DNA of 64,000 nucleotides, from the NCBI RefSeq assembly GCF_048403405.1, contig NZ_CP183129.1. One strand, 5' to 3'. A program made the translations under genes and the position numbers. The notes below the pieces were generated by a model. It saw nothing but the letters and a program-made list of their open reading frames with translations, was not told where the DNA came from and did no database searches. This stretch comes from Escherichia coli. GTDB taxonomy: Bacteria > Pseudomonadota > Gammaproteobacteria > Enterobacterales > Enterobacteriaceae. Shown piece by piece: positions 3 to 13,552 of the stretch (within the stretch, counting starts at the first letter, position 1; each line of letters begins with the position of its first letter).

Positions 3-551
3 CCGGTCAGCGATAACGCGGCGCTGACTGGGTTAAGTAAGCTTTTCCGGCACATTCAACCCGCCGTGAACGATCCTCAGGATCTGCGCGCAAAACTGGA
101 AATGCTGTGGGCGTCTTACTATGGCGGCGTAGCGATAACCCATGCGGGCACGCATCTCGTTCATGCGCTCTCCTACCCGTTAGGTGGCAAATATCATCTG
201 CCGCATGGCGTCGCGAATGCCATCTTGCTGGCGCCGTGCATGGCGTTTGTTCGCCCCTGGGCGGTCGAGAAATTTGCCCGGGTCTGGGATTGCATTCCCG
301 ATGCGGAAACCGCCCTGAGCGCGGAAGAAAAATCTCATGCCCTGGTGGCCTGGCTACAGGCATTAGTCAATCAACTCAAGCTACCCAACAATCTCGCGGA
401 TCTCGGCGTACCGCCAGAGGATATTGCCTCTCTTAGCGAGGCGGCACTGAACGTGAAGCGCCTTATGAACAATGCGCCGTGCCAGCTTGATCTACAGGAC
501 GTACAGGCCATTTACCAAACACTGTTTCCGCAACATCAATTTAAGGAATAA
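3..551 (+). CDS. Iron-containing (group III) alcohol dehydrogenase family protein, C-terminal ~182 aa; 5' end lies beyond the left window edge
   Basis: Frame is open from nt 3 with no stop before the track's GTG at 66. Contains HALSYPLGGKYHLPHGVANAILL, the His-rich metal-binding segment typical of Fe-ADHs (FucO/YiaY/EutG-like). Stop lies 3 nt before the next ATG. Confidence 0.8.
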   Translation, partial: PVSDNAALTGLSKLFRHIQPAVNDPQDLRAKLEMLWASYYGGVAITHAGTHLVHALSYPLGGKYHLPHGVANAILLAPCMAFVRPWAVEKFARVWDCIPDAETALSAEEKSHALVAWLQALVNQLKLPNNLADLGVPPEDIASLSEAALNVKRLMNNAPCQLDLQDVQAIYQTLFPQHQFKE

Positions 552-554
552 ATC

Positions 555-1442
555 ATGCCGAAAACCATTGAAGGTGTATTAACCGCCATCGTCACCCCGT
601 TTACCGCGACCGGCAGTCTGAATATCCCGGCGTTAAAAGTGCAGGTGAATCGTCAACTGGAAGCGGGTAACGCGATTTTTTGCGGCGGCACCAACGGCGA
701 GTTTTTTGTGTTGAATGAACAGGAGAAGCTCAGCGTTACGCAAACCTGCGTGGATGAAGTGGCTGGTCGTGCGCCGGTCGTGGCACACATTGGCGAGATC
801 TCGACGCGCGAAACGATTCGTCTGGGTCAGCAGATTGAAAAACTTGGCGTAGATGCTGTGTCGGTCATTACCCCTTACTTCGTACCGCTGAAACAGGAAG
901 AGTTGATTGCGCATTACAGCGCAATTGCCGACGCGCTGAGCATTCCGATGTTTCTCTATAACATCCCGGCCCGCACTGGCAATACGATCCAGCCGGAAAC
1001 CGCGCGTGCTCTGGCGTCGCATCCCAATATCATTGGGATTAAAGACAGCGCCGGAAGCGACGAAAGCCTGAAGGGTTTTCTCGATGCTGTGCGCAACATT
1101 GACGGCTTTAATGTACTCAACGGCCCGGATTCGCTGATCCATAAAGGGTTTGTCGAGGGGTGTTCAGCCTGTATCTCTGGGCTCGCCAACGTCGCACCGC
1201 GGGAAATCAATGCTATCTGGTCTCGCGTCCATGCCGGTGATATTGAAGGGTCTTATGAAGCACAGGAGAGTGTAACGGGCCTGCGTACCGACCTTTATAA
1301 AGTAGCGTTCTCCCCGGCTGCGGTGAAAAAAGCGTTGCAGCTTATGGGGCATGATGTTGGTGATAGCCGCTACGCGGTTAATTTCACGCCTGAACAGATC
1401 AGCGAGATTCAACAAATTATTCGTCATTATAACATTAATTAA
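555..1442 (+). CDS. DapA/NanA-family class I (Schiff-base) pyruvate aldolase/lyase
   Basis: 295 aa. Motifs GGTNGEF, VITPYF, YNIPARTGN and IGIKDSAG (putative Schiff-base Lys) align with the DHDPS/N-acetylneuraminate lyase family. AAGGA RBS precedes the start, which follows the ADH stop closely. Confidence 0.85.
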   Translation: MPKTIEGVLTAIVTPFTATGSLNIPALKVQVNRQLEAGNAIFCGGTNGEFFVLNEQEKLSVTQTCVDEVAGRAPVVAHIGEISTRETIRLGQQIEKLGVDAVSVITPYFVPLKQEELIAHYSAIADALSIPMFLYNIPARTGNTIQPETARALASHPNIIGIKDSAGSDESLKGFLDAVRNIDGFNVLNGPDSLIHKGFVEGCSACISGLANVAPREINAIWSRVHAGDIEGSYEAQESVTGLRTDLYKVAFSPAAVKKALQLMGHDVGDSRYAVNFTPEQISEIQQIIRHYNIN

Positions 1443-1501: not shown

Positions 1502-2260
1502 ATGTTTTTGTGGTTTATGCAGCCAGATATCTGGCTCACTTTAATTACCCTCACCTTTCTGGAAATTATTCTTGGGGTGGATAATATTATTTTTCTTTCA
1601 CTGGTGGTGGCAAAACTTCCGTTATCACAACAAAATATGGCGCGTAAACTGGGTTTAAGCTGCGCGATGATTATGCGGATATTATTGCTGATATCCATTG
1701 CGTGGCTTTCACATATTACCCAGCCGCTTTTTACCGTGCTGACGCTGGAGATTTCGTTCCGCACGTTGATTCTGCTCGGGGGCGGGCTGTTCCTGATTTA
1801 TAAAGCGATACAGGAGATACGCGAAGAGCTGTCGCCCGCGCAGGAAGACGAACATGGCAGCGGATCGCGGCAACTGTCGTTGTGCGGTGCCATCGTACAG
1901 ATAATGCTGCTCGATATCGTGTTTAGCCTGGATTCGGTGATCACCGCCGTCGGCCTTTCTCAGCATATATTTATCATGATTGCCGCCGTAATGATTGCCG
2001 TCGGTGTCATGATGTTTGCGGCGAAAACAATTGGTGATTTCGTTAACGCCACGCCGTCAATAAAAATACTGGCGTTAACCTTTTTATTATTTGTCGGTGT
2101 ATTGCTGGTTGCCGATAGTCTCAACATTCATATTGCCAAAGAGTATCTCTACTTCGCGATATTTTTCTCATTAAGTGTTGAGACACTCAATATTATCCGT
2201 GAAAGAAGAAATAAAAAAGTTTCGACATTGATCGAAACGCATGAATCGCACTCGCATTAA
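1502..2260 (+). CDS. TerC-family integral membrane protein (YgdQ-like)
   Basis: 252 aa and multi-TM. LEIILGVDNIIFLSLVVAKLP and IVQIMLLDIVFSLDSVITAVG are the duplicated TerC-family signature and closely resemble E. coli YgdQ as I recall it. AAGGA RBS. Confidence 0.8.
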   Translation: MFLWFMQPDIWLTLITLTFLEIILGVDNIIFLSLVVAKLPLSQQNMARKLGLSCAMIMRILLLISIAWLSHITQPLFTVLTLEISFRTLILLGGGLFLIYKAIQEIREELSPAQEDEHGSGSRQLSLCGAIVQIMLLDIVFSLDSVITAVGLSQHIFIMIAAVMIAVGVMMFAAKTIGDFVNATPSIKILALTFLLFVGVLLVADSLNIHIAKEYLYFAIFFSLSVETLNIIRERRNKKVSTLIETHESHSH

Positions 2261-2295: not shown

Positions 2296-3465
2296 ATGTC
2301 TGTAGCCCTTATTCGTGACGGCGTCATCCGTCCATCCGAAAACGATTCGCATGTGCTTACCGCCATGCTGCCCTCGTCCTGCCCACAAAACCACGCGGCG
2401 AATATTCTGCCTTTGCCGGATGGCGCGTTAATGTGCGTCTGGTTTGCGGGAACGCAGGAAGGTATTGCCGATATTTCTGTCTGGGGATCGCGATTGCCCG
2501 CTGGCGGGATGCAGTGGAGCGATGCGGTCAAACTTTCCCACGATGACACGCGTTCAGAGCAAAACCCAGTGCTGTTTCTCGCGCCGGATAACGTGCTGTG
2601 GCTGCTATGGACCGCACAAATATCCGGGAATCAGGACACCGCCATCGTCCGCTACCGTAAGTCAGACGACCTCGGACAAACCTGGGGCGAGATTGCCACG
2701 CTGCTCGATAAACCCGGCACGTTCATTCGCCAGCCGATCACGGTGCTTGATAACGGCAACTGGCTGCTGCCCGTCTTTTATTGCCGTACCCAACCCGGTG
2801 AAAAATGGGTCGGCAATGATGATATCAGCGCAGTGAAAATTTCCGCTGACGGTGGTCACTCCTGGCGCGATGTCGTGGTGCCGCAAAGTCTCGGCTGCGT
2901 TCATATGAATATCACAATGCTGCACGACAGTACGTTGGTTGCTCTCTTTCGAAGCCGTTGGGCAGACAACATCTATATCAGCCATTCAGTGGACAACGGC
3001 GAGAGTTGGTCGGTGCCGCAAGCTACCGAATTGCCCAACAACAATTCGTCTATTCAGGTAACGACGCTTGCCAGCGGCGAACTGGCGCTGGTGTACAACG
3101 CGATGAGTGCGGCAGGCGCAGTAGAACGTCGCGCGTCGCTTTATGACGAAATCGACGATGGCGACGACAGCCGCAAAGAACCGACAGCCGTCGGACGCTC
3201 CGCTTTCTGGGGGGCCCCACGCGCGCCGATGACGGTAGCGATTTCTGCCGATGGTGGGAAAAGCTGGCCGTGGCGGCGCAATCTCGATGAAGGCGACGGC
3301 TACTGCATGACCAACAATTCCCTGGAAAAGCTAAATCGTGAGTTCTCCTACCCCAGCATCAAACAAAGCCCGGACGGTACGCTACATATCGCTTACACCT
3401 GGTGGCGTCAGGCCATCAAGTACGTGCGCATCTCCCCCGAGTGGGTTAAGGGGCAGGCATCATGA
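2296..3465 (+). CDS. BNR/Asp-box repeat sialidase-fold protein (exo-alpha-sialidase family), no signal peptide
   Basis: 389 aa. Four Asp-boxes (S-x-D-x-G-x-[ST]-W): SDDLGQTW nt 2662-2685, SADGGHSW 2842-2865, SVDNGESW 2986-3009, SADGGKSW 3244-3267. N-terminal V-I-R-P resembles the sialidase RIP motif. The N-terminus is hydrophilic, with no leader or lipobox. Confidence 0.8.
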   Translation: MSVALIRDGVIRPSENDSHVLTAMLPSSCPQNHAANILPLPDGALMCVWFAGTQEGIADISVWGSRLPAGGMQWSDAVKLSHDDTRSEQNPVLFLAPDNVLWLLWTAQISGNQDTAIVRYRKSDDLGQTWGEIATLLDKPGTFIRQPITVLDNGNWLLPVFYCRTQPGEKWVGNDDISAVKISADGGHSWRDVVVPQSLGCVHMNITMLHDSTLVALFRSRWADNIYISHSVDNGESWSVPQATELPNNNSSIQVTTLASGELALVYNAMSAAGAVERRASLYDEIDDGDDSRKEPTAVGRSAFWGAPRAPMTVAISADGGKSWPWRRNLDEGDGYCMTNNSLEKLNREFSYPSIKQSPDGTLHIAYTWWRQAIKYVRISPEWVKGQAS

Positions 3466-3932
3466 TTATCGGTAATCTCAACCATTTGTCGCTGGCGGGG
3501 CTTCCCGCCTGGGTGAGAAATATTCTGCTGTGCCCGGAGTGTTCGTTATCGGCGTTATCCGCCAGAGAGGACGGTCGCTGGCAACCTGAAGGATGTCGGT
3601 GGTTCTGCACGCTGGGAACTTCAGACACGCAACCCGCCGAACTCCGCCATACGGAGTATCACCATCTGTGGGCCGATATCCAGGTGGTGATTACTGGTTG
3701 TGAGGGCATTAATGCGGGAACGCGGCCCATCGCTCGCGAAAACGATGAAGAACGTAAGCCCGATCTGTTTATCGCCCCATCCCCTGAAAACAGTGTCGCC
3801 ATCACTCTACACCCCGGTGATTTCGCCGTCTTTATGCCTGAGGAACCTCACCAGGCGCTGTGCGCGATTGGCGCGGCTACGTCAGTACGCAAAGCGGTCT
3901 TTAAGGTACCGCGCGACATGCTGGAAGCCTAA
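3462..3932 (+). CDS. YhcH/YjgK/YiaL (DUF386) family protein
   Basis: 156 aa. GDFAVFMPEEPHQA and HTEYHHLWADIQVVI parallel GMFAVFMPGEPHKP and ELHEQYIDIQLLL of E. coli YhcH (recalled). Its ATG overlaps the upstream stop (ATGA), implying translational coupling. Confidence 0.8.
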   Translation: MIIGNLNHLSLAGLPAWVRNILLCPECSLSALSAREDGRWQPEGCRWFCTLGTSDTQPAELRHTEYHHLWADIQVVITGCEGINAGTRPIARENDEERKPDLFIAPSPENSVAITLHPGDFAVFMPEEPHQALCAIGAATSVRKAVFKVPRDMLEA

Positions 3933-3945
3933 AAGGAGAGAAAAA

Positions 3946-5226
3946 ATGACAATGGAAATGATCCTGGCATTAGGAATACTGGTCCTGATGATCGTGCTGA
4001 TCATGTCGGACAAAATGCCATTTGGCGCACCGCCACTGCTTGCGTGTTTATTGCTGGTTGTCTCGGGACTTTCGACCGTTCAACAGGCTTTTGCCGGATT
4101 CGTCAATCCAAGCGTGGTGATGATTGCAGGGTTTATGGTGGTCATGGCAGCGCTACAAAAAACCCGGCTTATCAGCAACGTTAAATCTGCGATGATAAGC
4201 CTGGTCAATAAAGGCAGTTACCGCAGCTACGGGCTGTTGTTAGTCATTGTTATGCTGGGTGCCAGTCTTGCAGGCACCGGCGCGACCGGTTATTACGTGC
4301 TGATTCTGTCGCTGGTATCCACCATTCCGTACAGTAAAAAGCTACCAACATCGAAATTAATGATGCCCCTGGGATTTGCCACCAACCACCCGCTTCTTCC
4401 TATCAATCTCGCGCTTCTCTTTGGCGTTACGGCGACCGTACTCGAAACCGCGGGTTTTCATCAGGAGATTTCGATGGGGCGCTTTGCGCTGGTGAATCTC
4501 ATCATGTCAGCGGCGTTCCTCGCATGGAGTCTTATTGCCTACCGTTTTCTTCCGGATCATCCCATTGCGGATGCTTCCGAGGATGCGCTGGCGGCACGCG
4601 AGGAAACGTTTAACGCCCTTCCTGCCTGGAAAGAATATTGCACTATTGCCGCATTCGCTGTCAGCGTTATCGGCATGATGCTAATGAACATTCTGGGAAA
4701 TATCGCCTTCGTTATTCCGGGTCTTGCGGGTGCGTTTGTTCTGATGATCGATGTACTGGACTTTAAAGAAGTTCGCGATCATATGGGAGCGCCGGTCATT
4801 TTAATGATGGCGGGGGTGATCGGTGTAGCTGATGCACTGGCGGGCACCGGCTTTACGGCGATGGTTGGCGATGCCGTTGCAGGTGTGCTCGGTTCTGGCG
4901 TCTCACCGTTTGTATTTATTGTCGCCTTTGCTTTGCTTACCAGTACCTGCGCCACCTTCACGGGTTCGAATATGGGGTCTGTTTATATTTTTGCCCCCAT
5001 CGCCATTGCCGCCTGTACCAGCCTTGGGCTTAACCCGACCGCTGCAGCGATTGCGGTGGTGATTTCAGGCTGGAACGGCGGCTATATGCCTATTGACGGA
5101 ATGCCAGCCATGATCCTCGGAATGGGGAAATACAAACTTCCCGAATTCTGGGTGTTCTCTGTACCAATGTATCTCATCCGCATTCTGGCGCTTTGTGCAG
5201 GCGCTGTTTTTATCTTCCCAATGTAA
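3946..5226 (+). CDS. Ion-transporter superfamily anion permease (ArsB/NhaD / citrate-transporter-like), 426 aa
   Basis: Highly hydrophobic multi-TM protein. I chose the start at ATG 3946, behind a strong AAAGGAGAG RBS. The track's 3700 start overlaps the YhcH-like gene out of frame and encodes a basic, non-membrane leader. Confidence 0.75.
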   Translation: MTMEMILALGILVLMIVLIMSDKMPFGAPPLLACLLLVVSGLSTVQQAFAGFVNPSVVMIAGFMVVMAALQKTRLISNVKSAMISLVNKGSYRSYGLLLVIVMLGASLAGTGATGYYVLILSLVSTIPYSKKLPTSKLMMPLGFATNHPLLPINLALLFGVTATVLETAGFHQEISMGRFALVNLIMSAAFLAWSLIAYRFLPDHPIADASEDALAAREETFNALPAWKEYCTIAAFAVSVIGMMLMNILGNIAFVIPGLAGAFVLMIDVLDFKEVRDHMGAPVILMMAGVIGVADALAGTGFTAMVGDAVAGVLGSGVSPFVFIVAFALLTSTCATFTGSNMGSVYIFAPIAIAACTSLGLNPTAAAIAVVISGWNGGYMPIDGMPAMILGMGKYKLPEFWVFSVPMYLIRILALCAGAVFIFPM

Positions 5227-5314: not shown

Positions 5315-7261
5315 TTACTTTTTGATTTCATACAGCGGCGTTTGACCCGCCACGACATGGCCCTGAGCTTTAATGATCAAGCCGCTGAAATCGTCGATAT
5401 TGCTGCAAACCACCGGGCTAATCATCGAGCGGGCGTTAGCGTTCAGGTAATCCAGATCCATTTCCAGAATCGGTTGTCCTGCGCTTACCTGCGCGCCCTC
5501 TTCCACCAGACGTTTAAAACCTTTACCTTCCAGCGCTACGGTGTCGATACCCATATGGACGACGATCTCCGCGCCTTTTTCGGTTTCCAGGCAGAACGCG
5601 TGGTTGGTATTGAAGATTTTCACGATTGTCCCTGCGGCTGGTGATACGACGATTTTATCTGTCGGTTTCACCGCCACACCGTCACCCACCGCTTTGCTGG
5701 CGAATGCTTCGTCAGGAACCTGATCCAGTGCCACAACATCACCGGTAATCGGCGATACCAGCTCCGCGACAGACACCGCGTTTGGTATAGCCTGCGGTTT
5801 TGCTACAGGCGCGGCAGTTGCAGGCGCAGTTTCAGCTGACGTAGCGGCTACCGGACCACGGGCAACAACTTTCTTCATTGCATCGCCAATGGATTCCGCT
5901 TTCGCGCCAACAATCACCTGAATAGTCTGTTTGTTCAGTTTCACTACCCCAGAAGCACCCAGCCGTTTACACATCGCATCGTTGACGCGAGCCGAGTCAA
6001 CCACGGTCAGGCGCAGACGAGTAATACAGGCGTCAATTGCTTTCAGGTTGTCAGTGCCGCCAACCGCAGCAATATAGTTGGTCGCCAGTTGATTGAGGCC
6101 TTCTTCAGTGTTGCTGTTGGCTTCTTCAGTAACGATCTCATCTTCTTTATCTTCACGACCCGGCGTTTTCAGGTTGAACATGCGGATAACCAAACTGAAC
6201 ACCACGAAGTAGATAGCGAAGAAGACAACACCCATCACCAGCAGCATCCAGACGTTCTGGCTGGCGGCCGGCAGGTTATACATCAACGCGTAGTCGATAG
6301 CCCCCGCAGAGAAGGAGAAGCCCGCGTGGATACCCAGCAGCGTTGCCACAAACAGGCTGATACCGGTCAGCAGTGCGTGCAGGAGGTACAGCAGCGGCGC
6401 AAGGAACATGAACAGGAATTCCAGCGGCTCAGTCACACCGGTCAGGAACGCAGTAACAGCAACAGAAAGCAGCATACCGCCAACCATCGGACGACGCTCT
6501 TTCGGTGCTGCAAAGTACATCGCCAGCGCCGCACCCGGCAGACCGAACATCATGATCGGGAAGAAGCCGGACATGAACATCCCCGCGGTGCCGTCACCGG
6601 CATAGAAGCGGTTGATGTCACCGTGGAAAACCGTACCCGCCGCGTTGGTGAATTCACCAATCTGGAACCAGGCGATGGTGTTCAGTACCTGATGCAGACC
6701 GGTTGGGATCAGCAGACGGTTGATGAAACCAAAGATACCGGAACCCAGCGCGCCCGCAGAAACGATCCACTCGCCGCCTGCATGGATAGCGTGCTGTACC
6801 GGCGGCCAGACGTAACCAAAAATGGCCGCCAGCACCAGGCAGAAGAAGCCGGTGGCAATCGGCACAAAGCGTTTGCCGCCGAAGAAACTCAGGAAGTCCG
6901 GCAGTTTAATATCGGACCAACGGTTATAAGCTGCGCCACCAACCAGACCGGTAATGATACCCGCCAGTACACCCATGTTAATTTCCGGGTTGATGGTCAC
7001 CATCGCTTTGGTTAACACAAAGTAACCTACCGCACCCGCCAGCGCCGCCGCACCTGCGCTGTCTTTCGACCAGCTGGATGCCACACCGATGGCGAAGATT
7101 AATGCGAGGTTATCAAAAATCGCACCGCCCGCCTGGGCAATAAACGCAACGTTAAGTAAATCTGGCTGACCGAATCGCAGCAACAGCGCCGCCACCGGCA
7201 GCACCGCGATAGGGAGCTGTAACGCCCTACCGAGTCGCTGGAAAAAACCTAAAATATTCAT
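5315..7261 (-). CDS. nagE: PTS N-acetylglucosamine-specific EIICBA component
   Basis: 648 aa. Full-length recognisable NagE sequence (MNILGFFQRLGRALQLPIAVLP...), divergent from nagB. Confidence 0.97.
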   Translation of the reverse strand: MNILGFFQRLGRALQLPIAVLPVAALLLRFGQPDLLNVAFIAQAGGAIFDNLALIFAIGVASSWSKDSAGAAALAGAVGYFVLTKAMVTINPEINMGVLAGIITGLVGGAAYNRWSDIKLPDFLSFFGGKRFVPIATGFFCLVLAAIFGYVWPPVQHAIHAGGEWIVSAGALGSGIFGFINRLLIPTGLHQVLNTIAWFQIGEFTNAAGTVFHGDINRFYAGDGTAGMFMSGFFPIMMFGLPGAALAMYFAAPKERRPMVGGMLLSVAVTAFLTGVTEPLEFLFMFLAPLLYLLHALLTGISLFVATLLGIHAGFSFSAGAIDYALMYNLPAASQNVWMLLVMGVVFFAIYFVVFSLVIRMFNLKTPGREDKEDEIVTEEANSNTEEGLNQLATNYIAAVGGTDNLKAIDACITRLRLTVVDSARVNDAMCKRLGASGVVKLNKQTIQVIVGAKAESIGDAMKKVVARGPVAATSAETAPATAAPVAKPQAIPNAVSVAELVSPITGDVVALDQVPDEAFASKAVGDGVAVKPTDKIVVSPAAGTIVKIFNTNHAFCLETEKGAEIVVHMGIDTVALEGKGFKRLVEEGAQVSAGQPILEMDLDYLNANARSMISPVVCSNIDDFSGLIIKAQGHVVAGQTPLYEIKK

Positions 7262-10878: not shown

Positions 10879-11631
10879 ATGACCATTAAAAATGTAATTT
10901 GCGATATCGACGGCGTGCTGATGCACGATAACGTCGCCGTACCGGGTGCAGCGGAATTTTTGCACGGGATTATGGATAAAGGCCTGCCGCTGGTGTTGCT
11001 GACCAACTATCCTTCGCAGACCGGGCAAGATCTGGCGAACCGCTTTGCCACTGCCGGTGTCGATGTACCGGATAGCGTGTTTTATACCTCCGCGATGGCA
11101 ACCGCCGATTTCCTGCGTCGCCAGGAAGGCAAGAAAGCATATGTGGTGGGCGAAGGCGCACTGATTCATGAACTGTACAAAGCCGGTTTCACTATTACCG
11201 ATGTGAACCCTGATTTTGTGATTGTTGGCGAAACGCGTTCCTACAACTGGGACATGATGCATAAAGCAGCCTATTTCGTCGCTAACGGTGCACGCTTTAT
11301 CGCCACCAACCCGGACACCCACGGGCGCGGTTTTTATCCCGCGTGTGGCGCGTTGTGTGCAGGCATCGAAAAAATCTCCGGGCGTAAACCGTTCTATGTT
11401 GGTAAACCGAGTCCGTGGATCATCCGCGCAGCATTAAACAAAATGCAGGCGCATTCGGAAGAAACAGTGATTGTCGGCGATAACCTGCGTACCGATATTC
11501 TGGCGGGCTTCCAGGCCGGTCTGGAGACGATTCTGGTACTCTCTGGCGTTTCGTCGCTCGACGATATCGACAGTATGCCATTCCGCCCCAGCTGGATTTA
11601 CCCATCGGTCGCTGAAATCGACGTTATCTGA
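10879..11631 (+). CDS. nagD: HAD-family ribonucleotide monophosphatase
   Basis: 250 aa with the DIDGVL HAD motif. It is the last gene of nagBACD. Confidence 0.95.
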   Translation: MTIKNVICDIDGVLMHDNVAVPGAAEFLHGIMDKGLPLVLLTNYPSQTGQDLANRFATAGVDVPDSVFYTSAMATADFLRRQEGKKAYVVGEGALIHELYKAGFTITDVNPDFVIVGETRSYNWDMMHKAAYFVANGARFIATNPDTHGRGFYPACGALCAGIEKISGRKPFYVGKPSPWIIRAALNKMQAHSEETVIVGDNLRTDILAGFQAGLETILVLSGVSSLDDIDSMPFRPSWIYPSVAEIDVI

Positions 11632-11638
11632 ATAGCAA

Positions 11639-11668
11639 CCACGCCTCAGGGCGTGGTTTCTTATTTTT
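11639..11668 (+). terminator. nagD rho-independent terminator
   Basis: CCACGCC-TCAG-GGCGTGG followed by TTTCTTATTTTT. Confidence 0.7.
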
Positions 11669-11887
11669 ACCCATCATTAAAATTCACCCATTCAATAAAA
11701 CCCGCCAAAAATTATCGATTCATCAATAAATACACCTCCACACCCTACCCTTTTTCATTAATCAGCAATCACCATTACGTTTTTTATTTACCCCCTGCCA
11801 AATCGCTTGCGTACAGTGCTGCTTTGCGGCATTTTTTTAAACAAGCAAACACAACAAGCAACAAATACCAGGTTAACGGAGAAGGTT

Positions 11888-13552
11888 ATGTGTTCAATTT
11901 TTGGCGTATTCGATATCAAAACAGACGCAGTTGAGCTGCGTAAGAAAGCACTCGAACTGTCACGCCTGATGCGTCATCGTGGCCCGGACTGGTCCGGTAT
12001 TTATGCCAGCGATAACGCCATTCTCGCCCACGAACGTCTGTCAATTGTTGACGTTAACGCGGGGGCGCAACCTCTCTACAACCAACAAAAAACTCATGTG
12101 CTGGCGGTAAACGGTGAAATCTACAACCACCAGGCACTGCGCGCCGAATATGGCGATCGTTATCAGTTCCAGACCGGATCTGACTGCGAAGTGATCCTCG
12201 CGCTGTATCAGGAAAAAGGGCCGGAATTTCTCGACGACTTGCAGGGCATGTTTGCCTTTGCCCTGTACGACAGCGAAAAAGATGCATATCTGATTGGTCG
12301 CGACCATCTGGGGATCATCCCACTGTATATGGGCTATGACGAACACGGTCAGCTGTATGTGGCCTCAGAAATGAAAGCCCTGGTGCCAGTTTGCCGCACG
12401 ATTAAAGAGTTCCCGGCGGGGAGCTATTTGTGGAGCCAGGACGGCGAAATCCGTTCTTATTATCACCGCGACTGGTTCGACTTTGATGCAGTGAAAGATA
12501 ACGTGACCGACAAAAACGAGCTGCGTCAGGCACTGGAAGATTCCGTTAAAAGCCATCTGATGTCTGACGTTCCTTACGGTGTGCTGCTATCTGGTGGCCT
12601 GGATTCCTCAATCATTTCCGCGATCACCAAGAAATACGCCGCCCGTCGCGTGGAAGATCAGGAACGCTCTGAAGCCTGGTGGCCGCAATTACACTCCTTT
12701 GCTGTAGGTCTGCCGGGTTCACCGGATCTGAAAGCAGCCCAGGAAGTGGCAAACCATCTGGGCACGGTGCATCACGAAATTCACTTCACTGTACAGGAAG
12801 GTCTGGACGCCATCCGCGACGTGATTTACCACATCGAAACCTATGATGTGACCACTATTCGCGCTTCAACACCGATGTATTTAATGTCGCGGAAGATCAA
12901 GGCGATGGGCATTAAAATGGTGCTGTCCGGTGAAGGTTCTGATGAAGTGTTTGGCGGTTATCTTTACTTCCACAAAGCACCGAATGCCAAAGAACTGCAT
13001 GAAGAGACGGTGCGTAAACTGCTGGCCCTGCATATGTATGACTGCGCGCGTGCCAACAAAGCGATGTCAGCCTGGGGCGTGGAAGCACGCGTTCCGTTCC
13101 TCGACAAAAAATTCCTCGACGTGGCGATGCGCATTAACCCACAGGATAAAATGTGCGGTAACGGCAAAATGGAAAAACACATCCTGCGTGAATGTTTTGA
13201 GTCGTACTTGCCCGCAAGTGTGGCCTGGCGGCAGAAAGAGCAGTTCTCCGATGGCGTCGGTTACAGTTGGATCGACACCCTGAAAGAAGTAGCGGCACAG
13301 CAGGTTTCTGATCAACAGCTGGAAACTGCCCGCTTCCGCTTCCCGTACAACACGCCGACGTCCAAAGAAGCGTATCTGTACCGCGAGATCTTTGAAGAAC
13401 TGTTCCCGCTTCCGAGCGCCGCTGAGTGCGTGCCGGGCGGCCCTTCCGTCGCGTGTTCTTCCGCTAAAGCGATCGAGTGGGATGAGGCGTTCAAGAAAAT
13501 GGACGATCCGTCTGGTCGTGCGGTTGGTGTTCACCAGTCGGCGTATAAGTAA
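11888..13552 (+). CDS. asnB: Asparagine synthetase B (glutamine-hydrolysing)
   Basis: 554 aa from MCSIFGVFD (N-terminal Cys nucleophile after Met), behind a GGAGAAGG RBS. The track's 11807 start adds 27 unsupported residues. Confidence 0.96.
   Translation: MCSIFGVFDIKTDAVELRKKALELSRLMRHRGPDWSGIYASDNAILAHERLSIVDVNAGAQPLYNQQKTHVLAVNGEIYNHQALRAEYGDRYQFQTGSDCEVILALYQEKGPEFLDDLQGMFAFALYDSEKDAYLIGRDHLGIIPLYMGYDEHGQLYVASEMKALVPVCRTIKEFPAGSYLWSQDGEIRSYYHRDWFDFDAVKDNVTDKNELRQALEDSVKSHLMSDVPYGVLLSGGLDSSIISAITKKYAARRVEDQERSEAWWPQLHSFAVGLPGSPDLKAAQEVANHLGTVHHEIHFTVQEGLDAIRDVIYHIETYDVTTIRASTPMYLMSRKIKAMGIKMVLSGEGSDEVFGGYLYFHKAPNAKELHEETVRKLLALHMYDCARANKAMSAWGVEARVPFLDKKFLDVAMRINPQDKMCGNGKMEKHILRECFESYLPASVAWRQKEQFSDGVGYSWIDTLKEVAAQQVSDQQLETARFRFPYNTPTSKEAYLYREIFEELFPLPSAAECVPGGPSVACSSAKAIEWDEAFKKMDDPSGRAVGVHQSAYK

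Follow-up and report, generated by a model that had tools for sequence, protein, structure and literature searches.

A gene pair opening an accessory island in Escherichia coli

The window (64,000 nt of an Escherichia coli genome) begins inside a gene for a group III iron-containing alcohol dehydrogenase (Fe-ADH, hereafter ADH), which is followed by a gene for a class I aldolase paralogue of the DHDPS/NanA superfamily (Table 1). The pair stands at the start of an accessory island of nine genes, located between glnS and nagE and arranged deoR-pdxA2-dtnK <> ADH-aldolase-terC-BNR-yhcH-SLC13; dtnK, pdxA2 and the gene for a DeoR regulator lie just upstream of the window and are divergent from the ADH-aldolase operon. 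The island is present in 1047 of 5426 complete E. coli genomes (19%), among them those of EPEC E2348/69 and APEC BEN2908, and is absent from K-12. It has been listed, with no function given, among regions common to invasive and extraintestinal strains (PMC12928451).

Table 1 Features of the island within the window, and the flanking nagE gene.
Feature	Position	Strand	Remarks
Group III iron-containing ADH, 3′ part	3–551	+	549 nt (182 codons plus stop); translation free of stops
Shine-Dalgarno-like AAGGAA of the aldolase	543–548	+	Read directly; within the last ADH codons
DHDPS/NanA-superfamily class I (Schiff-base) aldolase paralogue	555–1442	+	295 aa; Pfam PF00701
TerC-family integral membrane protein	1502–2260	+	Pfam TerC, 157 bits
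Sialidase-fold six-bladed BNR propeller protein	2296–3465	+	Pfam BNR_2, 216 bits
YhcH/YjgK/YiaL (NanQ-like) protein	3462–3932	+	TIGR00022; 4-nt overlap with the BNR gene
SLC13/DASS-CitMHS-type anion permease	3946–5226	+	RefSeq annotation; CitMHS 87 bits, Na_sulph_symp 48 bits
nagE	5315–7261	minus	Adjoins the last island gene (SLC13-type permease)

The missing N-terminus of the ADH was recovered from an identical genome, where the full gene (positions 11394–12551 of locus L001; annotated start 606 nt before window position 1) encodes a protein of 385 aa matching Pfam Fe-ADH and ADH_Fe_C. As the ADH is the first gene of its operon, membership in an unrelated upstream operon, a concern raised in the first-pass annotation, is excluded. 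By Pfam, the protein is a generic group III Fe-ADH. Its best NCBIfam matches were ErcA, FucO and 4-hydroxybutyrate dehydrogenase, at ~215 bits and all far below the cut-offs; both models of the lactaldehyde reductase FucO were missed (TIGR02638, 217.7 bits, cut-off 523; PRK10624, 206 bits, cut-off 537). The nearest solved structures are those of a methanol dehydrogenase and a lactaldehyde reductase. We propose that the ADH acts as an NADH-dependent reductase of the aldehyde that the aldolase would release.

Exactly 3 nt, read from the sequence, separate the ADH stop codon (TAA, 549–551) from the aldolase start codon (ATG, 555–557), and the purine-rich ribosome-binding site of the aldolase falls within the coding end of the ADH, both as noted initially. 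Almost every orthologous locus has a purine-rich box ahead of the aldolase ATG. The 3-nt spacing is a feature of Escherichia and Citrobacter, other loci mostly having a gap of 10–21 nt with a Shine-Dalgarno sequence of its own. Thus, of the translational coupling read from this junction, co-transcription is conserved and strict coupling is only suggested. A natural ADH-aldolase fusion was absent from the loci for which the spacing was computed. Consensus scans of the whole island for promoters and terminators gave counts equal to the shuffled expectation and nothing between ADH and aldolase, and were uninformative.

The aldolase forms a clade separate from DapA and NanA

The aldolase scored 208.6 bits against Pfam PF00701 (gathering score 22.1), with the Schiff-base lysine and the neighbouring tyrosine present, and is 25–29% identical to E. 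coli DapA, NanA and YagE (NanA 25%, YagE 27%). Its best single HMM match was dapA (TIGR00674), at 191.1 bits still under the equivalog cut-off of 206.15; the NanA models (PRK04147, 147.8 bits, cut-off 281; TIGR00683, 114 bits, cut-off 382) and the KdgD models (125 and 87 bits) were likewise missed. In a PDB search DHDPS structures ranked first, with YagE as a detectable relative. Phylogenetic placement assigned the aldolase to a clade of its own, outside DapA, NanA and YagE. Being below the NCBIfam cut-offs of both families and in a separate clade, the enzyme is neither DapA nor NanA, in agreement with the initial reading. Relatives of at most 42% identity (Paenibacillus, Clostridia; annotated as DapA) fall outside the clade and were not counted as orthologues.

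The key residues of the enzyme are Lys163 (Schiff base), Tyr135, Arg140, Thr46-Asn47 and Phe109, and Lys163, Tyr135 and Arg140 are invariant within the clade. Arg140 lies in the motif LYNIPARTGN (residues 134–143). The first-pass annotation had taken this arginine to be DapA-like and unusual for NanA-type enzymes; indeed, in an alignment with E. coli DapA, NanA and YagE it occupies the column of DapA Arg138, where NanA and YagE show Leu. In DapA, Arg138 binds the carboxylate of aspartate semialdehyde, a C4 aldehyde-acid, and by this parallel Arg140 would suit a carboxylated C4 aldehyde as the aldolase product. DHDPS-family proteins from elsewhere in the family likewise carry the arginine and the Thr-Asn/Phe signature, so neither feature, not being confined to this clade, is specific evidence. 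Equivalents of DapA Lys161, Tyr133, Thr44 and Arg138 are kept from the catalytic set, Tyr107 and Thr45 are replaced by Phe109 and Asn47, and His53/His56 of the lysine site are not kept. E. coli K-12 carries dapA (b2478) yet lacks the island, and the island aldolase, accessory (19% of genomes) and part of a catabolic cluster, is not the enzyme of the lysine/diaminopimelate pathway.

The pair is clustered with D-threonate genes across Proteobacteria

D-Threonate catabolism by DtnK, a DUF1537 kinase, and PdxA2 was reportedly described by Zhang et al. (PNAS, 2016) for Salmonella STM0162/STM0163. Both island enzymes passed the respective equivalog cut-offs: DtnK scored 532.5 bits against NF047819 (cut-off 450; 529 bits in Pantoea) and PdxA2 681 bits against NF002891 (cut-off 583; 676 bits in Pantoea). 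The S. meliloti homologues missed them, the kinase with 126 bits and the PdxA protein with 303 bits and a match to the generic PdxA model only. For the E. coli island DtnK, an identity of no more than 40% with the characterised enzyme of Salmonella has been reported (PMC12928451).

Conservation was assessed in 166 loci, comprising 80 Enterobacterales species and 6 plasmid loci (86 in total) and 80 metagenome loci. Within the set of 86, the ADH was found in 85 loci, PdxA2 in 81, DtnK in 77 and the DeoR regulator in 75; the metagenome loci contained the ADH in 68, DtnK in 56 and PdxA2 in 54 cases, most of the 12 that lacked the ADH being short contigs. The ADH gene lies directly upstream of the aldolase gene in 85 of the 86 genome and plasmid loci and in all non-Enterobacterales metagenome loci that have an ADH. 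This adjacency is far beyond chance and is kept across proteobacterial classes, supporting the view taken at the outset that the two genes form a functional unit.

All four genes (ADH, aldolase, dtnK and pdxA2) are clustered in Enterobacterales, Comamonas, an Acetobacteraceae-like metagenome contig, Rhizobiaceae and Rhodobacterales. On a Comamonas-like contig, dtnK-pdxA2-ADH-aldolase-deoR form one co-directional operon beside a TctC binding protein, with no further enzyme; the Acetobacteraceae-like contig combines TctABC with dtnK-pdxA2-ADH-aldolase; and in Rhizobiaceae, Roseateles and Rhodobacterales plasmids the four genes occur in shuffled order. A Roseomonas plasmid locus has the pair with neither DtnK nor PdxA2 within 10 kb. 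Most transporters beside these genes belong to types for anions or polycarboxylates (SLC13/CitMHS, TctABC, ACS-family MFS). ORF clustering over the 166 loci returned no additional enzyme family common across lineages; specifically, neither a β-L-arabinofuranosidase nor a pectin enzyme nor any other recurring enzyme emerged that would fit the idea of rhamnogalacturonan-II side chain D. Some loci carry further genes: a D-2-hydroxyacid dehydrogenase gene right after the aldolase in ~35 enterobacterial and in the Acetobacteraceae-like loci, and an SMP-30/gluconolactonase gene immediately ahead of the ADH gene in loci of the Roseomonas type. Hosts comprise plant-associated bacteria (Pantoea, Erwinia, Kosakonia, Agrobacterium, Sinorhizobium), marine isolates (Alloyangia, Roseicitreum) and gut bacteria. 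For the S. meliloti copy (SMb2014x), a literature search for functional studies gave transcriptome lists only, in which the transporter is named Dpp-like.

In essentially all enterobacterial loci, the dtnK-ADH intergenic region contains a conserved 16-bp palindrome, TGATTATATTCAATCA, with a density of 3.5 per kb within this region as compared to 0.003 per kb outside. A second copy is located 18 nt ahead of the ADH start in E. coli. The palindrome is the predicted shared operator of the divergent operons in Enterobacterales.

A proposed route from a C7 sugar acid to DHAP

Given that D-threonate kinase and dehydrogenase genes adjoin the pair and travel with it, we propose that a C4 aldehyde-acid would be converted to D-threonate as a carbon source. 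The pair probably belongs to one pathway with DtnK and PdxA2, connected through a C4 acid. The more specific scheme, to which we give an even chance, casts the pair as the front end of a four-enzyme route from a C7 2-keto-3-deoxy dicarboxylic sugar acid via D-threonate to DHAP. The substrate would enter the cell, in E. coli via the SLC13-type permease, the proposed uptake system. The aldolase would form a Schiff base via Lys163 and cleave the C3–C4 bond to yield pyruvate and 2,3-dihydroxy-4-oxobutanoate (D-threuronate), Arg140 holding the distal carboxylate in the way DapA Arg138 holds that of aspartate semialdehyde. The ADH would then reduce the aldehyde with NADH to D-threonate, DtnK would phosphorylate D-threonate at C4, and PdxA2 would oxidise and decarboxylate the product to DHAP and CO2, regenerating NADH. 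The net conversion of substrate and ATP to pyruvate, DHAP and CO2 would be redox neutral.

The best candidate substrate would be 3-deoxy-D-lyxo-heptulosaric acid (Dha), a sugar found in the pectin rhamnogalacturonan-II and in the walls of prasinophyte algae. Dha is favoured because its configuration at C5 and C6 yields D-threonate specifically: in our derivation, checked against the known cleavage of Kdo to D-arabinose, the D-lyxo arrangement (C5 left, C6 right) gives D-threuronate and from it D-threonate. Even so, we name Dha itself as the substrate only tentatively, with less than even confidence. Equally tentative is the broader proposal that the island could be the missing pathway of Dha catabolism and the natural source of D-threonate, which would explain the existence of dedicated D-threonate enzymes; included in it is the idea that a DapA-derived aldolase may have been recruited because its arginine already bound a C4 aldehyde-acid. 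To our knowledge, the natural origin of D-threonate is unexplained despite a dedicated bacterial kinase and dehydrogenase. In the literature searched, no paper describing Dha catabolism was found, and a 2026 preprint on rhamnogalacturonan-II describes no Dha route.

Several findings count against the model of Dha and D-threonate, namely the 40% identity of DtnK, the rhizobial enzymes below the cut-offs, and the Roseomonas pair lacking DtnK and PdxA2. Moreover, breakdown of free Dha needs neither the 2-hydroxyacid dehydrogenase nor the lactonase of the variant loci, so either the substrates differ there or the model is incomplete. Two other candidates were rejected. Kdo as the substrate would give D-arabinose, a C5 compound with no link to a C4 kinase, and the threonate derived from ascorbate is L-threonate.

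Accessory genes of the island

The BNR protein shows, by eye, no N-terminal signal sequence and on that basis looks cytoplasmic. Its AlphaFold2 model (pLDDT 84, pTM 0.88) is a six-bladed β-propeller, whose best fold matches are GH33 sialidases (TM 0.64–0.70, probability 1.00); a sequence search against the PDB returned nothing at E ≤ 0.01. In a profile alignment with S. pneumoniae NanB, the 'RIP' arginine R245 corresponds to His33, the acid/base aspartate D270 to Glu55 and the catalytic glutamate E541 to His203, with the second arginine R557 kept as Arg219; the invariant Arg309 and Tyr352 are candidates for the third arginine and the tyrosine of sialidases. Judged from this alignment, the protein lacks the canonical GH33 catalytic set, having His at two canonical catalytic positions. 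It occurs alongside small-solute transporters, and this combination of a cytoplasmic-looking protein, two His substitutions and such transporters agrees poorly with plain hydrolysis of Dha glycosides. The protein may be an accessory 'feeder' enzyme, with a glycoside of the ulosonic acid, or that acid in dehydrated form, as possible substrate.

For the YhcH-like protein, which passed TIGR00022 (97.3 bits, cut-off 45.5), missed the NanQ equivalog NF040884 (91.5 bits, cut-off 160) and is 33% identical to E. coli NanQ (E = 3e-21), we propose a role as a ring-opening or anomerase helper for the aldolase substrate. The terC gene is confined to the island version of Escherichia, the Klebsiella oxytoca group and Kluyvera (9 of 86 loci) and is disrupted by IS1 in strain BEN2908. 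Searching the island against Rfam gave no match, and the 59-nt spacer before terC contains no riboswitch of the yybP-ykoY type.

Alternative readings of the locus

The product first suggested for the aldolase was glycolaldehyde or lactaldehyde, following the logic of YagE/YjhH plus FucO. A 2-keto-3-deoxy pentonate or 6-deoxyhexonate would be split into pyruvate and one of these aldehydes, the ADH would detoxify the latter like FucO, and DtnK and PdxA2 would act in damage control, salvaging 4-hydroxy-L-threonine or tetronates that stem from glycolaldehyde. The ADH scores about as well against lactaldehyde reductase (218 bits) as against anything else and has FucO structures among its nearest, and YagE is related to the aldolase; 4-hydroxy-L-threonine was also reportedly linked to glycolaldehyde by Thiaville in 2016. 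Further in favour of detoxification, the DUF1537 kinase STM0162 was reported to phosphorylate toxic 4-hydroxy-L-threonine (PMC10971088). We nevertheless consider this reading unlikely, as the D-threonate kinase and dehydrogenase accompany the pair, which speaks for a C4 aldehyde-acid used as a carbon source over a C2 or C3 aldehyde that is simply detoxified, and their placement in the same operon (Comamonas) or under a shared operator (Enterobacterales) is more in keeping with a main-line pathway than with repair. The 166 loci contained no YagF/YjhG-type dehydratase, no sugar dehydrogenase and nothing else that could supply a keto-deoxy pentonate; YagE and NanA lack the arginine that is invariant in the aldolase clade; and the recruited transporters favour polycarboxylates. 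The link to D-threonate would still be explained if a C7 mono-acid (a 3-deoxy-heptulosonate) were cleaved to D-threose, whose cyclic hemiacetal the ADH would oxidise to D-threono-lactone; opening of the lactone would provide D-threonate for DtnK and PdxA2, a scheme to which the SMP-30/gluconolactonase gene of Roseomonas-type loci lends some weight. However, most lineages lack a lactonase, Fe-type group III ADHs are known as aldehyde and primary-alcohol enzymes and not as sugar-1-dehydrogenases, the redox balance of the pathway would be lost, and Arg140 and the polycarboxylate-type transporters would go unexplained. We also know of no natural 3-deoxy-lyxo- or xylo-heptulosonate, and regard the tetrose scheme as quite unlikely.

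That the DHDPS-family protein is no aldolase at all, being instead a dehydratase/decarboxylase or deaminase akin to KdgD, KDA dehydratase or pyrroline-hydroxy-carboxylate deaminase, or a DapA-like condensing enzyme, appears improbable. The superfamily does include such enzymes, the KdgD and dapA models gave 125, 87 and 191 bits, and Phe at the position of DapA Tyr107 alters the canonical proton relay; in that case the product on which the ADH acts might be a semialdehyde, for example 2,5-dioxopentanoate. Yet every one of these scores is under its family cut-off, none of the chemistries supplies DtnK and PdxA2 with a C4 acid, the lysine-site His53/His56 of DapA are not kept, and E. coli already has a dapA gene. 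Least credible to us is a Nan-like system for a C9 or C8 ulosonic acid (Neu5Ac, KDN, Kdo) in which the ADH and D-threonate genes are accidental neighbours. It would account for the joint presence of a sialidase-fold protein, a NanQ-like protein, a NanA-superfamily lyase and a transporter next to nag genes, but ~40% of loci lack the BNR and YhcH genes, whereas almost all loci have ADH, DtnK and PdxA2, the scores fall far short of the NanA cut-offs, arabinose or mannose handling is lacking, and the position beside nag is specific to Escherichia, K-12 having nothing at that site. NanK and NanE are neither annotated in the island nor recurrent in the 166 loci; with no such means of handling ManNAc, the original argument for an aldolase coupled to an aldehyde reductase, with a substrate other than Neu5Ac, holds, and judging by gene content Neu5Ac is unlikely.

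Possible significance and relation to known systems

If the Dha pathway is correct, one conserved gene set would explain both the breakdown of Dha and the origin of D-threonate, and would give functions to two widespread proteins that automatic annotation leaves without a specific name, the 'dihydrodipicolinate synthase family protein' and the 'iron-containing alcohol dehydrogenase'. A biosynthetic DapA would have been retooled for catabolism with its aldehyde-acid-binding arginine retained, and plant-associated Enterobacterales, rhizobia, Comamonas and about one-fifth of sequenced E. coli would live on a fragment of pectin set free by Bacteroides and other primary degraders. As an accessory trait of 19% of complete E. 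coli genomes, the island may bear on gut cross-feeding on dietary pectin. Should the Dha model be wrong, the genes would still represent a robustly conserved pathway, not an artefact.

Relative to D-threonate catabolism by DtnK and PdxA2, the proposed end of the island route (D-threonate to 4-phospho-D-threonate to DHAP and CO2) would be identical, and the island likewise encodes enzymes passing both equivalog cut-offs and a DeoR-type regulator. It differs in permanently joining an aldolase and an Fe-ADH, which D-threonate itself does not require, implying that the cell would itself form D-threonate from some larger compound. The layout of sialidase-fold protein, YhcH-family protein, Schiff-base pyruvate lyase and transporter matches that of the Nan system (NanH, NanT, NanQ/YhcH, NanA), except that the aldehyde would meet a reductase, a kinase and a decarboxylating dehydrogenase in place of NanK and NanE. 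DapA, the best-scoring characterised family, shares with the aldolase the Schiff-base lysine and the equivalents of Tyr133 and the C4 aldehyde-acid-binding Arg138, and is set apart by the missed cut-off, the exchanges of Tyr107 to Phe and Thr45 to Asn, the lost His53/His56, the separate clade and the catabolic context.

In the glucarate/galactarate route, a keto-deoxy aldarate is cleaved by the aldolase GarL to pyruvate and an aldehyde-acid, which the tartronate-semialdehyde reductase GarR converts to a hydroxy-acid for phosphorylation by the kinase GarK. The island would follow the same logic, the Gar route being one carbon shorter; its enzymes, however, come from unrelated families (class II aldolase, β-hydroxyacid dehydrogenase, glycerate kinase), and it has a C3 product and no decarboxylating step. 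YagE/YjhH plus FucO resemble the island in that a DHDPS-family aldolase gives pyruvate and an aldehyde reducible by an Fe-ADH, whereas YagE lacks the arginine and works with a dehydratase not present in the island. FucO is not genetically linked to YagE, in contrast to the ADH and aldolase genes, which are adjacent in nearly every locus. Among families close to the ADH, 4-hydroxybutyrate dehydrogenase likewise interconverts a C4 aldehyde-acid and the hydroxy-acid.

An accessory island joins the dehydrogenase-aldolase pair to D-threonate genes

The window is E. coli chromosomal sequence, matching several human isolates at 100% identity and EPEC E2348/69 at 98.6%; its first 5.2 kb are part of a nine-gene accessory island between glnS and nagE, where K-12 has only a ~200-bp spacer. 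The island is present in 1047 of 5426 complete genomes, in single copy and on the chromosome. A 2026 genome paper (PMC12928451) includes it as 'GR 6' without assigning a function, and reports Sinorhizobium meliloti homologues of its sialidase-like, DapA-like and alcohol dehydrogenase (ADH) genes.

An identical genome (L001) supplied the sequence upstream of the window and with it the missing ADH N-terminus. The complete protein has 385 aa and is encoded by the first gene of its own operon; the ADH is therefore not part of an unrelated upstream operon. It is followed by genes for the aldolase, a TerC-family membrane protein, a sialidase-fold (BNR) protein, a YhcH/NanQ-family protein and an SLC13-type permease. 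Divergent from this operon, across a 169-bp intergenic region, lie dtnK, pdxA2 and a gene for a DeoR-family regulator. Both catabolic proteins pass their NCBIfam equivalog thresholds, DtnK as D-threonate kinase (532 versus 450 bits) and PdxA2 as D-threonate-4-phosphate dehydrogenase (681 versus 583 bits). The first-pass annotation had described the ADH-aldolase pair accurately in every detail, including the 3-nt gap and a ribosome-binding site for the aldolase within the ADH coding end. A 3-nt gap is shared by Escherichia and one Citrobacter locus; other loci mostly have 10-21 nt. The YhcH-family gene start overlaps the BNR gene stop by 4 nt (3462-3465), a tighter junction than that of the pair.

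Coordinates of the pair and of the upstream palindromes
Feature	Position	Strand	Remarks
Iron-type alcohol dehydrogenase, last 182 codons	3-551	+	Stop TAA 549-551, then ATC
Putative ribosome-binding site AAGGAA	543-548	+	Read from the sequence
Aldolase ORF, 295 codons	ATG 555 to 1442	+	DHDPS/NanA superfamily, Pfam PF00701, 208 bits
Palindrome copies	L001 11254-11269 and 11360-11375		Outside the window, about 640-750 nt upstream of position 1

A 16-bp palindrome occurs twice in the dtnK-ADH intergenic region, at a distance of 106 bp: TGATTATATTCAATCA near dtnK, identical in essentially every enterobacterial locus, and TGATTGAATTCAATCA, 18 nt before the ADH start. The pattern TGATT-N6-AATCA occurs at 3.5 per kb inside this region versus 0.003 per kb outside (about 1000-fold enrichment), with no match in the 64-kb window. 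The palindrome is a candidate, and probably the, operator for the DeoR-family protein and argues for a single regulon.

The aldolase belongs to a clade separate from DapA, NanA and YagE

The aldolase missed every curated cut-off: dapA (191 versus 206 bits), KdgD (125 versus 278), archaeal KDG aldolase (115 versus 390) and NanA (148 versus 281 and 114 versus 382). Its identity to E. coli DapA, NanA and YagE is 29%, 25% and 27%, respectively. When 1.8 billion representative proteins were scanned, scores started at 394 bits (60% identity), dropped fast to 283, 250 and 225, and ran into a continuum at 35-40% identity. A neighbour-joining tree of 133 sequences placed all context-verified aldolases in one 16-leaf clade excluding DapA, NanA and YagE. 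Within this clade, Lys163 (the predicted Schiff-base lysine), Tyr135, Arg140 and Thr46-Asn47 are invariant, the position of DapA Tyr107 is Phe, and the histidines of the DapA lysine site are absent. Arg140, within LYNIPARTGN (residues 134-143), indeed occupies the DapA-like position that had been noted for it; NanA and YagE have Leu in this column. The DapA counterpart of this Arg holds aspartate semialdehyde, a four-carbon aldehyde-acid, by the carboxylate; by analogy, Arg140 may likewise bind a carboxylate.

The gene set is conserved across lineages

Comparative genomics is the main evidence in this analysis. Loci fetched with an orthologue alignment (80 from one-genome-per-species collections, 80 from metagenomes and several annotated plasmid loci) were searched with the island proteins. 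In 85 of 86 genome and plasmid loci, the gene immediately before that of the aldolase encodes the ADH. The pair is a real and conserved functional unit. Among the 80 metagenome loci, an ADH was seen in 68, the remaining 12 being mostly short contigs. Beside the pair, the 86 loci encode PdxA2 (81), DtnK (77) and DeoR (75).

On a Comamonas-like contig, dtnK-pdxA2-ADH-aldolase-deoR forms one co-directional operon; a TctC binding protein adjoins it, and further enzymes are absent. An Acetobacteraceae-like contig combines TctABC, a GntR regulator and dtnK-pdxA2-ADH-aldolase with a 2-hydroxyacid dehydrogenase. In Rhizobiaceae, Roseateles, Alloyangia and Roseicitreum, genes for the kinase, PdxA, ADH, aldolase and BNR protein surround a Dpp-type ABC transporter in shuffled orders; the rhizobial kinase and PdxA have diverged so far that their HMM scores do not identify them as D-threonate enzymes. 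Clustering of all ORFs from 166 loci revealed no further family common to the lineages.

Downstream of the invariant pair, three interchangeable 'feeder' modules alternate (loci L007-L086 and L091-L170): TerC-BNR-YhcH-SLC13 (9 loci, E. coli included), SSS symporter-BNR-YhcH-SDR (~38 loci), and a D-2-hydroxyacid dehydrogenase with an ACS-family MFS transporter (~35 loci). Four loci (L038, L051, L052 and L078) carry two modules at once. In one Klebsiella pneumoniae protein (P0096, 494 aa), a full-length aldolase orthologue is linked to the NAD-binding, C-terminal half of the 2-hydroxyacid dehydrogenase; the protein looks like a deletion chimera rather than a designed fusion.

On a Roseomonas mucosa plasmid (L005 6696-12196) and in locus L170, a TctC binding protein, SMP-30/gluconolactonase, ADH, aldolase and 2-hydroxyacid dehydrogenase occur together; DtnK and PdxA2 are absent within 10 kb in this version, and both are present on a related metagenome contig (L161). 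In one genome only, a GH78 alpha-L-rhamnosidase, a second, different DHDPS-family protein and a DctP/SiaP-type TRAP transporter adjoin the cluster (Alloyangia pacifica plasmid, L171 12755-20097). They may form an accompanying system for a rhamnosyl-ulosonic acid, e.g. from the Rha-Kdo side chain of rhamnogalacturonan-II (RG-II).

A proposed route from a seven-carbon acid to D-threonate

According to Zhang et al. 2016, as cited in PMC10971088, D-threonate breakdown needs only DtnK and PdxA2. The aldolase and reductase always found beside them are unneeded for D-threonate itself, which argues that D-threonate is made intracellularly. In the proposed route, the Schiff-base aldolase would yield pyruvate (C3) and an aldehyde, which ADH would reduce to the C4 hydroxy-acid D-threonate. 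Reached by reduction, this product would require the aldehyde to be 2,3-dihydroxy-4-oxobutanoate, and pyruvate plus this C4 aldehyde-acid would in turn require a seven-carbon 2-keto-3-deoxy dicarboxylic acid as substrate. To our knowledge, the sole natural one is 3-deoxy-D-lyxo-heptulosaric acid (Dha), which is found in RG-II and prasinophyte walls. Fischer projections, checked on the cleavage of Kdo to D-arabinose, indicated that C5 and C6 of Dha give D-threuronate, the reduced form of which is D-threonate and not L-threonate or an erythronate. ADH, which keeps a FucO-like VTD motif (by eye), would consume NADH and PdxA2 would regenerate it, leaving the scheme redox neutral.

That ADH, aldolase, DtnK and PdxA2 form one pathway is somewhat probable; Dha as the substrate is a tentative assignment. 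The pair had earlier been proposed to release an aldehyde of the glycolaldehyde or lactaldehyde type; the most likely product is judged instead to be a C4 aldehyde-acid that feeds D-threonate breakdown. The earlier view that the substrate differs from Neu5Ac is supported. The presence of 4-hydroxybutyrate dehydrogenase among the nearest ADH families is consistent with the Dha scheme without being specific to it, as are the conservation of Arg140, the polycarboxylate-type transporters (SLC13/CitMHS, TctABC, ACS-MFS), the resemblance of the YhcH protein to NanA's ring-opening helper, and the plant-associated, marine-isolate or gut hosts. The arrangement resembles a Nan-like or Gar-like sugar-acid operon, here joined to a D-threonate module.

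Other components fit less well. With free Dha as the substrate, neither the 2-hydroxyacid dehydrogenase module nor the lactonase of Roseomonas would have a function, and the scheme does not account for TerC or SDR. The BNR protein (window 2296-3465) is confidently predicted to adopt a sialidase fold, with Glu55 at the GH33 acid/base Asp position; however, invariant His residues replace both the first catalytic Arg of the RIP motif (His33) and the catalytic Glu (His203), no signal peptide was seen by eye, and the protein is partnered with transporters for small solutes. This casts doubt on simple glycoside hydrolysis, and the protein may not be a conventional glycosidase.

Full-text literature searches on Dha/heptulosaric acid with aldolase or threonate, on Kdo aldolase/catabolism and on DUF1537/PdxA2 brought up no account of this pathway; the two founding papers on DUF1537, the DtnK family, may still mention the neighbourhood. 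A 2026 RG-II preprint regards the routes that other gut microbes have for several of the released RG-II sugars as unconfirmed, and gives none for Dha.

Within E. coli, the island abuts nagE (window 5315-7261), followed by nagBACD and, in identical genomes, asnB and a Met-Leu-Gln-Gln-Met-Gln tRNA cluster. In the avian pathogenic strain BEN2908 (NZ_LR740776.1 702404-706370), its TerC-family gene is interrupted by IS1A.
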